The notes beneath the pieces were generated by a model that was not told the DNA's origin, ran no database searches, and saw only the letters and a program-made list of their open reading frames with translations. A stretch of 64,000 bases of DNA from Escherichia coli. Lineage in GTDB: Bacteria > Pseudomonadota > Gammaproteobacteria > Enterobacterales > Enterobacteriaceae. Position numbers and translations under genes: made by a program. The stretch's first letter is position 1. Each line of letters starts with the position of its first letter. Location: assembly GCF_002854065.1 (NCBI RefSeq), contig NZ_CP024147.1. One strand, given 5' to 3'. Shown in pieces: positions 28,928 to 35,268 of this stretch.

Positions 28928-29302
28928 ATGAACAAATCGGACAAGACAAACAGGATAAGCAGTCTCGAAACAATGTTCGGGAACTATATTAGCACAAGTC
29001 CGGAGAAAATCATCATGTTGGCACTACGCATCATGCAGGGCATCGCTAAGACCCTCGCAGAACATGTCTTAGACCTGAAACATTCGCCACTGAGCAAACA
29101 GGCCATGAAGCGCCAAACGCTTCGTCTGTGGGCTGAATATTCGCTTGGAACTATCAATAAAATCATCGACATGAAATCGGGGCCGAGCAACCAGAGCGCG
29201 GAGGAAATGGAGTTCATCAGGCGTTTAATTCTCATTCGCAGAGATATTCATAGCCAGTTACACAGCGTGGGAATCGATATTAATGATGGGACGGGCGATT
29301 AA
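28928..29302 (+). CDS. Hypothetical prophage protein (124 aa)
   Basis: ORF in same cassette; basic, helical; no recognisable motif. Confidence 0.5.
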   Translation: MNKSDKTNRISSLETMFGNYISTSPEKIIMLALRIMQGIAKTLAEHVLDLKHSPLSKQAMKRQTLRLWAEYSLGTINKIIDMKSGPSNQSAEEMEFIRRLILIRRDIHSQLHSVGIDINDGTGD

Positions 29303-29340
29303 TTTTCGGACAAGTACAATGCGCGCGCGAGGAGCTGAAC

Positions 29341-29571
29341 ATGAAGCAAGATATTGCAGACAGGCTGGAGATACTCGAAGGCCAGCGGGCAGAAGCGAAA
29401 CAACTACGTAAGCAGGCCAGAAGAGCGCACAGGAACTACGAAGCAGAATCACTGACCGCTTTCATCAACTTCACAAACCGTTGCATCCAGGAGTGTTACA
29501 GGGAGGATGCAGAAAACTGGCTGGATTCATTGCCAGAACAGACTCTGCATGAACTGAACGGCGACCAGTAA
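29341..29571 (+). CDS. Hypothetical prophage protein (76 aa, coiled-coil-like)
   Basis: SD gaggag 7 nt upstream of ATG; Arg/Glu/Gln-rich helical sequence. Confidence 0.45.
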   Translation: MKQDIADRLEILEGQRAEAKQLRKQARRAHRNYEAESLTAFINFTNRCIQECYREDAENWLDSLPEQTLHELNGDQ

Positions 29572-29859
29572 ATAAATCCAGTACGTTTCCCGCAGTGCGC
29601 ATAACGTACATTATGTGAAAAACGATATGGATGTATATCAGTATTGATTTCATTGAGAAAACTGGGTTTTCAGTGGCACAGACAAAGAAGCATAGCTGAT
29701 ACAGCTTTATAAGCCATTGATTCTATTAAGTGATGTTTTTTGTGATTGGTTGAAGCAAACCAAAACACGATGCCACTGAAGCGTTAATAAACTGTTTCAA
29801 TGTGAAATTATTAGAGTAAAGAACAATTTGGAGGGTCCGCAAACGCGGATAACAATATC

Positions 29860-32040
29860 ATGAGTGGAAATCTCGGGACCATATACTACGAGGTCGATGC
29901 CCGCACTGGGAAACTTCTTATCGCGCAACAGCAGGCGGAAGAGGCGTTCGATCGCATTGAACGAGGAGCGCGGAAGGCTGATAGCGGCGTCAAAAAGTTA
30001 AATACGCAGATGACTAAAACATCAGCCGCAGTCAAAACCAACCTTTCCCCGGCAATCCGTAACGCATCATACCAGATCGCAGACCTTGCCACTCAATTGC
30101 AGATGGGCGGTAATGCGCTTCAGGCGTTCGCTGTGCAGGGTGCGCAGTTATTAGCTGGCTTTGGCACGATGGGCGCGGTAGCTGGCGCGGTGCTGGCTAT
30201 CGCTGGCGCTATGGGTGGAAGCCTGGCACAAGGCGCTGATAGTGCAGCCGGATCGGTTGAGTATCTGGACAAGGCGATCACCAAACTGAACGAGGTCATA
30301 GCTGTAAATGAACAGGGCGTGACGGTGATGAGTGATAGTTACGCCAGACTTTCTAAGGTTAACGCTGAAGTAGCGAAACAGATGCGGAACATGGCTGAAA
30401 TTCAGGCAATTGCAGCACTGCGTGACCTGAAAGAACAGGCAAGCCAGGCACAGGGGGAAATGTCGTCATTCTGGCGCAGCTTGCAGGGTGGTAAAGCTGA
30501 CGCAGCAGCAGCAGCACAGGCACTTGATGATCTTGGAATCACAACCAACGACTACAAAGAGGCGATAGCCATACTGAACGCCAATCAGCCGGATACACAG
30601 GCGCAAATGGCAACGCTAGCCAAATCCGTGATGTATGTTGGAGAGCAATATGATCTGACCAACCAGCAAGCATACGAATTTATACGCGCACTAAATAAGG
30701 CCGCGACAACGAAAACGCCGGAAGCCATGCAGGAGCTATCTGGCTTCATGCAGGTTTTGCTTCAGGATACCGAAAACGGTAACGAGGCATTCCGTGAACT
30801 GGCTATCAAATTCGTCGATGCACAAACCAAAGGCGCAATGTTGGAGGACCAACTAAACCGACTGAAAGGCGCTATTAGTGACGCAGCCACAGAAGCCAGA
30901 AACGCAAACTTTACCACTATGCTCAACACCGTCGCCGCACGCCTGGCAACCATTGAGCAAGGTTGGGAGGCAGGCGTTAGGATGCAGATGAAAGCCCAGG
31001 GCTACACTGAAGAGCAGATCGATGAATATGTGAACATGGAAACGGCGTACCGTGATGCAAAAGCCGCTTTGGACGAGAAGAACAAGGCCGACCGTGAAGC
31101 TATTGCGCTATCCAAACGCCAGGCCGCAGAAGCAGCCCGCAAGGCAAAACAGGAAGAAGCTGAAGCACAACGCAAGGCCAAACAGTTAGCCGCGCAGAAG
31201 GAGCAGGCAGGACGCTTTACGCAGCAAGTAATGACGGAATACCTGACGACCGTAGATCCGGCAACAGGCAAGGCGTTTAACCCTGCCGCACAAGTAGAAA
31301 TGCAGGAGCAGCAGAAGAAAGCGGCGCTGGATAAATACAGACAGTTGGGCGTCCTGGATGAACAGCAGTACCAGAACACGCTAACCGCCATCCAGAAAAC
31401 CGCGTCAATGCGCCGCCAGCAAATCATCAAAGACGAGGCCGACACGTTATTCAACAATCAGCAACAGTTGATCGGCACATTTGGCGATTTCTTCGGTGAA
31501 CTGTCTGGAGTCATAGCAGACGGTGCAGGTGAGCAAAACGCGGCATATCAAGCGCTATTTGCTGTGCAGAAGGGTTTTGTATTGGCATCAGCAGCTTTAA
31601 GCCTTCAGAAAGCGCTTGCTGAGGCAAACGCCTTGCCTTTCCCGGCTAATCTTCCGGCCTATGCGCAAGCTATGTCAGCAGGTACGCAGATCATTTCAGC
31701 TATTCGTGGAATAGCTTTCGGTGGCGGACGCTACAACGGCGGCGCGGTTGGTGCTGGCAACCTGTACCGCGTGGGTGAACACGGTAAGCCTGAGATATTC
31801 AAGGCGAACAATGGCAGCCAGTACATGATCCCAGGTGATAACGGTCGCGTGATAAGTAATCGTGACATTGGCGGCGGTGGCGGCGTAACAATCAACAGCC
31901 CGATCACCATTAACACTACGAATGGCTTCAGTGATGAAGACTCAAGGCGTCTTGAGGAAGCGATGAAGCGCGTAGCTATGGGCGTTTGCAGGCAGGAGTC
32001 AACCAGACCGGGAGGAATGTTAGCCCCGCGCCGTCGTTAA
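29860..32040 (+). CDS. Phage tail tape-measure-like protein
   Basis: 726-aa Ala/Gln-rich mostly helical ORF with glycine-rich hydrophobic N-terminal segment, long coiled-coil region (AEAARKAKQEEAEAQRKAKQLAAQKEQ) and C-terminal Gly-rich motif GGGRYNGGAVGAGNLYRVGEHG resembling the lambda gpH C-terminus as recalled. Confidence 0.65.
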   Translation: MSGNLGTIYYEVDARTGKLLIAQQQAEEAFDRIERGARKADSGVKKLNTQMTKTSAAVKTNLSPAIRNASYQIADLATQLQMGGNALQAFAVQGAQLLAGFGTMGAVAGAVLAIAGAMGGSLAQGADSAAGSVEYLDKAITKLNEVIAVNEQGVTVMSDSYARLSKVNAEVAKQMRNMAEIQAIAALRDLKEQASQAQGEMSSFWRSLQGGKADAAAAAQALDDLGITTNDYKEAIAILNANQPDTQAQMATLAKSVMYVGEQYDLTNQQAYEFIRALNKAATTKTPEAMQELSGFMQVLLQDTENGNEAFRELAIKFVDAQTKGAMLEDQLNRLKGAISDAATEARNANFTTMLNTVAARLATIEQGWEAGVRMQMKAQGYTEEQIDEYVNMETAYRDAKAALDEKNKADREAIALSKRQAAEAARKAKQEEAEAQRKAKQLAAQKEQAGRFTQQVMTEYLTTVDPATGKAFNPAAQVEMQEQQKKAALDKYRQLGVLDEQQYQNTLTAIQKTASMRRQQIIKDEADTLFNNQQQLIGTFGDFFGELSGVIADGAGEQNAAYQALFAVQKGFVLASAALSLQKALAEANALPFPANLPAYAQAMSAGTQIISAIRGIAFGGGRYNGGAVGAGNLYRVGEHGKPEIFKANNGSQYMIPGDNGRVISNRDIGGGGGVTINSPITINTTNGFSDEDSRRLEEAMKRVAMGVCRQESTRPGGMLAPRRR

Positions 32041-32163
32041 CCAAATCCCACGCCAGGGGAACAGACTGGCGGACCTTCAAAGACGGTCGCACACCGTGTT
32101 TGACATAATTTATTGTTTTTTGCTTGCTCTTATTATTGCAGCCGTTAGGGTAATGACTCCAAC

Positions 32164-32667
32164 TTATTGATAGTGTTTTATGTTCAGATAATGCCCGATG
32201 ACTTTGTCATGCAGCTCCACCGATTTTGAGAACGACAGCGACTTCCGTCCCAGCCGTGCCAGGTGCTGCCTCAGATTCAGGTTATGCCGCTCAATTCGCT
32301 GCGTATATCGCTTGCTGATTACGTGCAGCTTTCCCTTCAGGCGGGATTCATACAGCGGCCAGCCATCCGTCATCCATATCACCACGTCAAAGGGTGACAG
32401 CAGGCTCATAAGACGCCCCAGCGTCGCCATAGTGCGTTCACCGAATACGTGCGCAACAACCGTCTTCCGGAGACTGTCATACGCGTAAAACAGCCAGCGC
32501 TGGCGCGATTTAGCCCCGACGTATCCCCACTGTTCGTCCATTTCCGCGCAGACGATGACGTCACTGCCCGGCTGTATGCGCGAGGTTACCGACTGCGGCC
32601 TGAGTTTTTTAAATGGCGGAAAATCGTGTTGAGGCCAACGCCCATAATGCGGGCGGTTGCCCGGCAT
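32164..32667 (-). CDS. insB: IS1 InsB reading frame (expressed as InsAB transposase by -1 frameshift)
   Basis: 167-aa ORF overlapping the insA 3-prime end in the -1 frame, classic IS1 organisation. Confidence 0.85.
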
Positions 32668-32861
32668 CCAACGCCATTCATGGCCATATCAATGATTTTC
32701 TGGTGCGTACCGGGTTGAGAAGCGGTGTAAGTGAACTGCAGTTGCCATGTTTTACGGCAGTGAGAGCAGAGATAGCGCTGATGTCCGGCAGTGCTTTTGC
32801 CGTTACGCACCACCCCGTCAGTAGCTGAACAGGAGGGACAGCTGATAGAAACAGAAGCCAC
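32586..32861 (-). CDS. insA: IS1 InsA protein
   Basis: 91-aa [46 protein letters not shown] with zinc-finger cysteines. Confidence 0.9.
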
Positions 32862-32988
32862 TGGAGCACCTCAAAAACACCATCATACACTAAATCAGTA
32901 AGTTGGCAGCATCACCAGCTTTACTAATATATTGCAGCTGGACCGCTTACCCTGAATATTCAGGGTAAGCGTGAGAGTTAAAAAAGAA

Positions 32989-35268
32989 TTACAGCGGTTG
33001 GGTTTGCGCTTCAACCACGGCCAGCGCCACCATGTTGACGATACGACGTACCGATGCGATCGGCGTTAACACGTGAACCGGTTTCGCCACGCCCATCAGC
33101 ACCGGACCGACAGTCACACCTTCCGAGCTGGAAACGCGCAGTAAGTTGTAACTAATGCGGGCAGCTTCCATGTTTGGCATTACCAGAATATTGGCAGAAC
33201 CTTTCAAAGGGCTGTCCGGCATACGGTCGTTGCGAATCGCTTCCACCAGCGCTGCATCGCCGTGCATTTCACCATCAATCATCAGTTCTGGCGCACGTTC
33301 CCTGACCAGTTCCAGCGCCTGACGCATTTTGCTCGACGACGGACAGTCAGAAGAACCAAAGTTGGAGTGCGACAACAGAGCAACGCGCGGCTCAATACCA
33401 AAACGACGGACAGTTTCTGCCGCCATCAAGGTGATCTCCGCCAGCTCTTCTGCGTCTGGTTCGTCATTGACGTAGGTATCGGCAATAAAGGTGTTACCAC
33501 TCGGCAGCAGCAGCGCGTTCATTGCACCTGCGGTGTGAACGCCATCGCGATAACCAAAGACATTTTTCACCACGCTAAAATGTTCATGATAATCACCCAC
33601 CGTACCGCAAATCATTGCATCGGCTTCGCCACGCTGAACCATGATCGCGCCGATCACTGTCGGGTTACTGATCAACGCCCGCTGCGCCTGTTCCTGAGTG
33701 ACGCCGCGACGCTTCATGATCTGGAAGTATTCGGTCCAGTACTCTTTAAAGCGCGGATCGGATTCGTTATTGACGATCTCAAAATCAACGCCCGCTTTGA
33801 TCTGCAAGCCCAGTTTCTGAATGCGCATTTCGATCACGTTCGGACGACCGATAAGGATCGGTTTCGCCAGTCCCAGCGTTACCAGTTCCTGAGTGGCATG
33901 TAGAACGCGCGCCTCTTCCCCTTCCGGCAGAACTACGCGCTTCGGCGCTTTGCGAGCCTGGGAGAAAATCGGCTTCATAAACAGGTTGGTTTTGTAAACG
34001 AACTCAGTCAGCTTGTCGATGTAGACGTCGAAATCAGCAATCGGACGCGTCGCCACGCCCGACTCCATCGCCGCTTTCGCGACCGCAGGAGCGATCTTAA
34101 CGATCAAGCGCGGATCAAACGGTTTTGGAATGATGTATTCCGGACCAAAGCTCAGATCCTGATCGCCATACGCTGAAGCCACCACTTCGCTCTGTTCCGC
34201 ATGGGCCAGTTCTGCAATCGCGCGTACCGCCGCCAGTTTCATCTCTTCGTTGATGGCGGTTGCGCCAACGTCCAGCGCGCCACGGAAGATGAACGGGAAG
34301 CAAAGGACGTTGTTGACCTGGTTTGGATAGTCAGAACGACCGGTGCAGATGATGGCATCCGGACGCACTTCTTTCGCCAGCGGCGGCAGAATTTCCGGTT
34401 CCGGGTTCGCCAGCGCCAGGATCATTGGCGCTCGAGCCATTTTCTTCACCATTTCCTGGGTCAGCACTTTCGGGCCGGAACAGCCGAGGAAAATATCCGC
34501 GCCTTCAATCACATCATCGAGGGTACGTTTGCCGTCATCCACTACCGCATATGCGGCTTTGGTTTCCGCCATGTTTGGCTCACGGCCCTGATAGATAACG
34601 CCTTTTGAATCGCAAACCACGATGTTATGTTTTTGCAGACCCAGCGCGACCAGCAGGTTCATACAGGCGATTGCTGCAGCACCCGCGCCGGAAACCACCA
34701 TACGCACGTCAGAGATGTTTTTCTCCACCACGCGCAAGCCGTTGAGGATGGCGGCAGTGCTGATGATTGCCGTGCCGTGCTGATCGTCGTGGAATACCGG
34801 AATATTCATCCGCTCGCGCAGTTTCTGTTCAATATAGAAACATTCTGGCGCTTTAATGTCTTCGAGGTTGATTCCGCCGAAGGTCGGTTCGAGCGCAGCG
34901 ACGACTTCAATAAATTTGTCCGGGTCGAGTTCATCAACTTCAATGTCAAATACATCAATCCCGGCGAATTTCTTAAACAGAACGCCCTTGCCTTCCATCA
35001 CCGGTTTGCCTGCCAGCGCGCCAATGTTGCCTAACCCCAGCACCGCCGTACCGTTAGAGATCACCGCCACCAGGTTACCGCGCGCGGTATATTTGTAGGC
35101 TTTTAACGGGTCTTTTTCGATTTCAAGACAAGGTGCGGCAACGCCTGGTGAGTAGGCCAGCGCCAGATCGCGCTGCGTTGCCAGAGGCTTGGTTGGAGAA
35201 ACCTGGATTTTCCCTGGAACTGGAAATTCATGGAAATCAAGTGCACTTTGTTTTAACTGGTCATCCAT
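32989..35268 (-). CDS. maeB: NADP-dependent malic enzyme
   Basis: 759-aa ORF with N-terminal malic enzyme domain and C-terminal phosphotransacetylase-like domain. Confidence 0.95.

Follow-up and report, generated by a model that had tools for sequence, protein, structure and literature searches.

A perfect palindrome just downstream of maeB in the analyzed Escherichia coli DNA (a 64-kb stretch, herein referred to as the window) is probably the 3' stem-loop of the maeB mRNA, derived from a terminator whose U-tract has decayed. In this genome, the stem-loop probably acts mainly as a barrier to 3'-exonucleases and at most as a weak terminator. The palindrome is an ordinary feature and not an unusual element. 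The hairpin itself, its stability, position, single-copy status, and conservation, the polymorphism of its tail, and its positional equivalence to canonical terminators are shown by the analysis; termination, trimming, and an involvement of Rho are inferred. An earlier note on this DNA had considered an RNA stability hairpin, a REP-like element, or a protein-binding site. The first of these options is supported here and refined to a terminator-derived hairpin, since its homologues in related genomes still score as terminators.

Position and conservation of the palindrome

The 26-bp palindrome gcttaccctgaat/attcagggtaagc was found at 32945-32970, exactly where the earlier note had placed it. 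The perfect inverted repeat exceeds the noted one by a base pair at each end, covering 28 bp (32944-32971, minus strand, CGCTTACCCTGAAT/ATTCAGGGTAAGCG) with two arms of 14 nt each, 100% complementarity, and a spacer of 0. All other perfect hairpin-type inverted repeats in the window are shorter. Only one copy of the palindrome was found there, even with 3 mismatches allowed, and a match was present in 0 of 100 shuffled sequences. The number of perfect 28-bp palindromes expected by chance in 64 kb is about 64000/4^14, or 2e-4. A separate perfect inverted repeat of 12 nt with a 4-nt loop, flanked by an A-run and a T-run, was found at 2768-2795 (AAAAATGGCGCC-4-GGCGCCATTTTT); judged by its sequence, it resembles an intrinsic terminator that works in both directions.

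The maeB gene for the NADP-dependent malic enzyme, a 759-aa open reading frame identified through the RefSeq annotation of matching DNA, occupies 32989-35268 on the minus strand, with its stop codon at 32989-32991. The distance from this codon to the 26-bp version of the palindrome is 18 nt, as had been claimed, and that to the 28-bp version is 17 nt. This 17-nt spacer (32972-32988, minus strand; UUCUUUUUUAACUCUCA in maeB sense) varies among E. coli genomes, occurring as TTCTTTTTT, TTTTTTTT, or TTCATTCTT. On the other side of the hairpin, the remaining native sequence (32917-32943, minus strand; GUCCAGCUGCAAUAUAUUAGUAAAGCU in maeB sense) has 2 U in its first 8 nt, at the site of the U-run in relatives. 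It is followed by a 768-bp IS1 (32149-32916, minus strand), the transposase of which has the same direction as maeB. The palindrome had been described as the native sequence closest to IS1, which does not hold because these 27 bp of native DNA lie in between.

The segment 32917-33400 was found in 5423 of 5426 complete E. coli genomes. A 32-nt query centered on the palindrome, with 2 flanking bases included per side, matched 5409 of the 5426 genomes at one locus per genome. Among the 5410 matching records, 4048 were identical to the query, 1203 had one mismatch, and 159 had two or three. All five of the sampled one-mismatch genomes were K-12-like, with the outermost pair alone changed. Thus, by sequence comparison, the 26-bp core shows next to no variation within E. 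coli (about 3% of the 5410 matching records are exceptions), and the spacer and the tail on either side of it are polymorphic in the same sample. The apparent conservation of the palindrome is inflated by relatedness among E. coli genomes. A longer query of 68 nt spanning the tail was identical to the window in only about 106 of the 5409 genomes.

The comparison with strains having an intact maeB-eutS region, which the earlier note had proposed, found the palindrome in K-12, O157, S88, and others; the intact spacer is about 290 bp in these three strains and in many others. On this comparison, the palindrome is a native maeB-side element of E. coli. Its origin by the IS1 rearrangement is ruled out by its presence in strains with the intact spacer and in 5409 of the 5426 genomes.

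Several observations concern the IS1 junction itself. No 9-bp target-site duplication was found at the ends of the IS1 (flanks AGCCGTTAG at 32140-32148 and AGCTTTACT at 32917-32925). The left flank of IS1 (29000-32148) matches, at 99.7% identity, a CPZ-55-like prophage (intZ..yffS) that in strain MB52 is located between eutA and eutB at a distance of 13.4 kb from the maeB stop. By this comparison, the window has an IS1-associated deletion that removed eutS through eutA as well as the yffS side of the prophage. An identical IS1 junction was found in E. coli strain 100416 (stool, Gambia). Additionally, a promoter-like site at 32903-32930 on the plus strand combines a -35 box TTGGCA from the IS1 end with a native -10 box TAATAT at a 16-bp spacing (9 of 12 consensus matches). 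Its direction is outward from IS1, across the palindrome and into maeB in antisense; in K-12, the native sequence lacks a comparable -35 box. This site may be a hybrid promoter, as judged by its match to the consensus, two such sites being found versus 1.2 expected in shuffled sequences.

The palindrome as an RNA hairpin and as a DNA site

In maeB-sense RNA, the palindrome forms a 12-bp stem with 7 G-C pairs and a 4-nt loop (dG -20.4 kcal/mol). In a 79-nt context, the fold has a z-score of -4.2, and the centroid structure is this hairpin alone. A stable G+C stem-loop is therefore located shortly 3' of the gene in the sense RNA, as in intrinsic terminators. Upstream of the stem, the sense strand is rich in U and not in A. 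In the window, terminator-like stability is thus found together with the absence of both a U-tail and an upstream A-tract, the combination seen in U-less protective stem-loops. A long-range pairing between the upstream U-run and a downstream A-run, predicted for K-12, was rejected; it is not conserved in the three Escherichia representatives used for comparison (L005-L007) and is absent from the window because of IS1. A search against Rfam at E-values up to 10 returned nothing significant; the best E-value was 0.7, and all matches fell far under the gathering score.

Eight distinct Escherichia variants of the hairpin were compared. Standard pairs were found in 97.9% of the pair cells, and eight pairs never vary. 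The three variable pairs found in relatives change on one side only, each to a G-U pair on the maeB-sense strand; on the opposite strand, the same three changes give A.C mismatches. Correspondingly, the dG values of the sense versus antisense strands are -16.3 versus -7.5 in Escherichia sp. MOD1-EC7003 (L005), -19.6 versus -15.6 in E. whittamii (L007), and -18.6 versus -14.1 in E. coli MSB1_4I (L086). The terminal-pair change in K-12 favors the other strand, with C.A on the sense strand and U.G on the antisense strand. No double-sided compensatory changes were found among the eight variants, the divergence of which is too shallow, and a shuffle control of covariation was uninformative with 8 sequences. 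Taken alone, the strand argument from three one-sided changes is suggestive and not statistically significant; the direction of the U-run in relatives and the positional equivalence to their terminators, described below, weigh more.

These same variants bear on the alternative that the palindrome acts as duplex DNA, as the operator of a dimeric DNA-binding protein such as a regulator of the eut promoter about 250 bp downstream or of maeB. The dyad symmetry is perfect over 28 bp including the center, which is more than an RNA hairpin requires and which argues against the stem-loop reading. Conservation within E. coli is very strong, and the palindrome belongs to the spacer that precedes the regulated eut operon, where genomic SELEX lists a low-resolution peak of the RNAP-sigma holoenzyme between eutS and maeB (PMC5493296). 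In relatives, however, DNA dyad symmetry with a conserved half-site spacing, as would be expected for an operator, was not found. Perfect central symmetry is peculiar to E. coli, according to the sequences compared, and is not conserved in relatives: in MOD1-EC7003, E. whittamii, and MSB1_4I, the center is asymmetric, with TGAATATTCA replaced by TGGATTATTCG, TGAGTAATTCG, or TGTTTATTCG, and the distance between the arms shifts by 0-1 bp. Across the Escherichia variants, the loop varies in sequence and in length, from 3 to 6 nt by RNAfold. An asymmetric center of variable length is predicted by a hairpin and not by an operator with a fixed half-site spacing. Moreover, the A-to-G and C-to-U changes in relatives break the DNA symmetry and keep the RNA pairing.

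Other genera have an unrelated GC hairpin at the same position. The eut promoter block lies about 150 bp further on in E. coli, and in Citrobacter and Klebsiella, which lack such a palindrome, it abuts the terminator. The core sequence CCTGAATATTCAGG was not found in any paper in the literature search. Resemblances to the RcsB, UhpA, and ArgR boxes were considered, and none fits the palindrome in spacing. The protein-binding site is therefore disfavored on account of the non-conserved loop length and central symmetry, and we consider an operator very unlikely.

The maeB 3' flank and the tail of the hairpin in related genomes

The DNA 3' of the maeB stop was compared for 80 loci of species-representative genomes that code for close relatives of the MaeB C-terminus. 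Escherichia is covered by three representatives (L005-L007), which do not include E. albertii or E. fergusonii; an exact-protein look-up of EutS returned E. coli-type spacers only. In Citrobacter, Klebsiella, Pseudocitrobacter, and Salmonella, a GC hairpin GGCGCGGG-loop-CCCGCGCC followed by TTTTTTAT was found about 20 nt past the maeB stop. By its sequence, this hairpin with its T-run is a textbook intrinsic terminator, and the E. coli palindrome is its positional equivalent. In those of the genera that carry eut, the terminator directly abuts a block of conserved eut promoter sequence, TTCTTAGTGATC..CACCTTTTAAA..TTGCCGAATTTTGTTATTTA; in E. coli, this block is located about 150 bp further downstream of the hairpin. 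Within Escherichia, one representative (L006) has a palindrome identical to that of the window, and homologous hairpins were found in E. whittamii (CGCTTACCCTGAGTAATTCGGGGTAAGCG, then the tail ATTTTTAT) and in MOD1-EC7003 (CGCTTACTCTGGATTATTCGGGGTAAGCG, then the tail GTTTTATT).

The tails were scored with a TransTermHP-style formula, for which the mean of random sequences is -2.08. The tails of Citrobacter, Klebsiella, and Salmonella, of the TTTTTTAT type, score from -5.3 to -5.8. The scores are -3.68 for E. whittamii (ATTTTTAT) and -3.39 for MOD1-EC7003 (GTTTTATT), both called as terminators on the maeB-sense strand. Among E. coli genomes, GTTTTCC was found at L085, L093, and L106 (-3.16 for L085) and GTTTTG in MSB1_4I (-3.15). 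Most E. coli have GTTTAG or GTTTGG (-2.8), the K-12 type is AGTTTAG (-2.27), and GTCCAG was found in the window, in strain 100416, and at L099 (-1.98). The hairpin of E. coli FDAARGOS_1281 (L085) has the same 28-bp palindrome as the window with the tail GTTTTCCT, and the scanner calls it terminator-like on the maeB-sense strand; neither the window nor the K-12 type is called. The natural tails include AUUUUUAU, GUUUUCCU, GUUUAGCU, and GUCCAGCU. The U-rich stretch of 7-8 nt that marks an intrinsic terminator is present in E. whittamii, MOD1-EC7003, and FDAARGOS_1281 and absent from the window, the tail of which, GUCCAGCU, has 2 U in 8 and scores about as random. Since L099 has the GTCCAG tail alongside an intact eutS, this tail predates the IS1 event.

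It had previously been noted that no U-run follows the palindrome on either strand, and this agrees with the lack of any scanner call in the window and with its tail score of -1.98 against the random mean of -2.08. The conclusion drawn from it, that the palindrome is not a canonical intrinsic terminator, is valid for the window, marginal for most E. coli (GUUUAG), and wrong for some E. coli and for the sister species. A still-functional intrinsic terminator in the window, compensating for its poor tail by a strong hairpin with forward translocation or by the help of NusA/NusG, is rather unlikely. The stem is indeed strong and long, and, with 4 U in 8, the majority tail GUUUAGCU scores -2.8. 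Some well-studied terminators, such as T7Te, work with interrupted U-tracts. Against this, the tail present here has a score equal to random, the scanner rejects both the window and K-12, and U-less hairpins in E. coli mark ends that are processed, not terminated (PMC6061677).

Between the hairpin and the eut block, Escherichia genomes contain about 150 bp of roughly 80% A+T sequence (K-12: L004, 1307-1555) that is absent from Citrobacter and Klebsiella; in the window, it is cut off at 32917. In MSB1_4I, the DNA 3' of the hairpin bears no relation to the eut spacer, and the annotation shows no eutS within 400 bp. Judged by the identity band, this pattern probably occurs in most of the approximately 159 genomes with variant hairpins, which suggests another rearrangement or island at this junction. 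Many Enterobacter, Leclercia, and Lelliottia species have no simple terminator in the maeB 3' flank, which is occupied instead by tandem CCCTCTCCC..GGGAGAGGG palindromic repeats or by REP-type repeats (GCCGGATAAGCGCAGCGCCATCC) (loci L028, L044, L054, L058, L062, L066, L075, L077, L081, and others). These flanks show how freely the maeB 3' position is re-tooled.

A member of a dispersed repeat, REP/BIME-like or a remnant of a miniature mobile element, would also be an extragenic palindrome at a gene 3' end, as REPs are, and the AT-rich Escherichia maeB-eutS sequence of about 150 bp missing from Citrobacter and Klebsiella could be counted in favor of such an insertion. This explanation is nevertheless extremely improbable. 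The palindrome has a single locus in each of 5409 genomes and a single window copy at up to 3 mismatches; the two match places reported per genome were traced by local BLAST to the palindrome matching its own opposite strand. Furthermore, it has no resemblance to the REP sequences past maeB in Enterobacter and Leclercia and no significant match in Rfam. The single-copy counts lead us to reject the REP-like option and rule out a dispersed repeat for copies about 85% or more identical.

A neutral accident of sequence having no function is highly improbable as well. The functional role of the hairpin is argued from sequence comparison, and kinship among genomes inflates conservation, both of which leave room for such an accident. 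However, only about 2e-4 such palindromes would be expected by chance in a window of this size. Moreover, both flanks of the core vary and the core itself does not, the stem persists in different Escherichia species through changes that preserve its pairing, and other genera have a terminator at the equivalent position.

Proposed role and comparison with known systems

The stem-loop reading favored here can be described as follows. The U-tract downstream of the maeB terminator hairpin has probably decayed to different degrees across Escherichia. Past the stem in the window, the tail GUCCAGCUG gives an RNA:DNA hybrid that is not U-rich, and RNA polymerase would mostly read through, continuing into IS1, which has the same orientation as maeB. 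The transcripts would have their first ends at later points: inside IS1 in the window, and within the AT-rich spacer preceding the eut promoter in the native arrangement. The hairpin would then block the 3'-5' exonucleases PNPase and RNase II that trim these transcripts, and trimming to the stem would define and stabilize the maeB mRNA 3' end, by analogy with Dar and Sorek (2018). The lineages with GUUUU or AUUUUU tails have probably kept direct intrinsic termination, insulating the inducible eut operon from constitutive maeB. A need for such insulation is plausible, since the eut operon, located 290 bp downstream on the same strand, is induced by ethanolamine plus B12 and MaeB is not (PMC11334477).

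According to 3'-end mapping in E. coli, Rho-dependent transcripts end precisely past stable stem-loops without U-tracts, which shield the RNA from PNPase and RNase II once transcription has terminated diffusely at later positions (Dar and Sorek, 2018; PMC6061677). Past the maeB hairpin, A+T makes up about 80% of the K-12 spacer, which has little G and in which C outnumbers G only from about +100; no clear C-rich, G-poor rut-like stretch was seen directly past the hairpin in this spacer. In the window, the downstream sequence is IS1. No entry for the maeB 3' end was found in the supplementary text of two Term-seq papers (Adams, 2021; TERMITe, 2025), and a full-text literature search on maeB termination or its 3' UTR returned nothing relevant.

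A further idea, conceivable though doubtful, is that the maeB hairpin is in transition from intrinsic to Rho- or processing-dependent 3'-end formation. The U-tract polymorphism (GUUUUC, GUUUAG, GUCCAG) would then set the read-through into eut, and the lineages would differ in basal, inducer-independent expression. Terminators could switch type in evolution merely by a changed U content past the stem (PMC6061677). Beyond annotation, the palindrome matters little, being resolved as the native maeB 3' hairpin. Nonetheless, one stem with a full, partial, or absent U-run in close lineages provides a clean natural series for the decay of an intrinsic terminator into a purely protective stem-loop. 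The same series is suitable for asking whether U-tract decay alters read-through into the adjacent, tightly regulated eut operon.

Three known systems can be compared with the maeB hairpin. REP/BIME elements consist of imperfect palindromes located in 3' UTRs, where they, too, can stabilize the upstream mRNA; they are multi-copy with a family consensus, whereas the maeB palindrome is single-copy and unrelated in sequence. The maeB terminator of Citrobacter, Klebsiella, and Salmonella is similar to the palindrome in place (about 20 nt past the stop), strand, and the presumed separation of maeB from eut. It differs in having an unrelated stem, GGCGCGGG/CCCGCGCC, and 7 T in the first 8 nt versus 2 in the window. 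The protective stem-loops of Dar and Sorek (2018) resemble the maeB hairpin in their site just past the stop, their terminator-like energy, and the lack of both a U-tail and an upstream A-tract. Members of that class have a dominant steady-state 3' end directly past the stem and depend on Rho or terminate inefficiently, features that the maeB hairpin may share; unlike in those cases, the native downstream region where termination would occur is replaced here by IS1. The switch of type through U content was foreseen by the same authors, and the Escherichia maeB series looks like such a switch under way.
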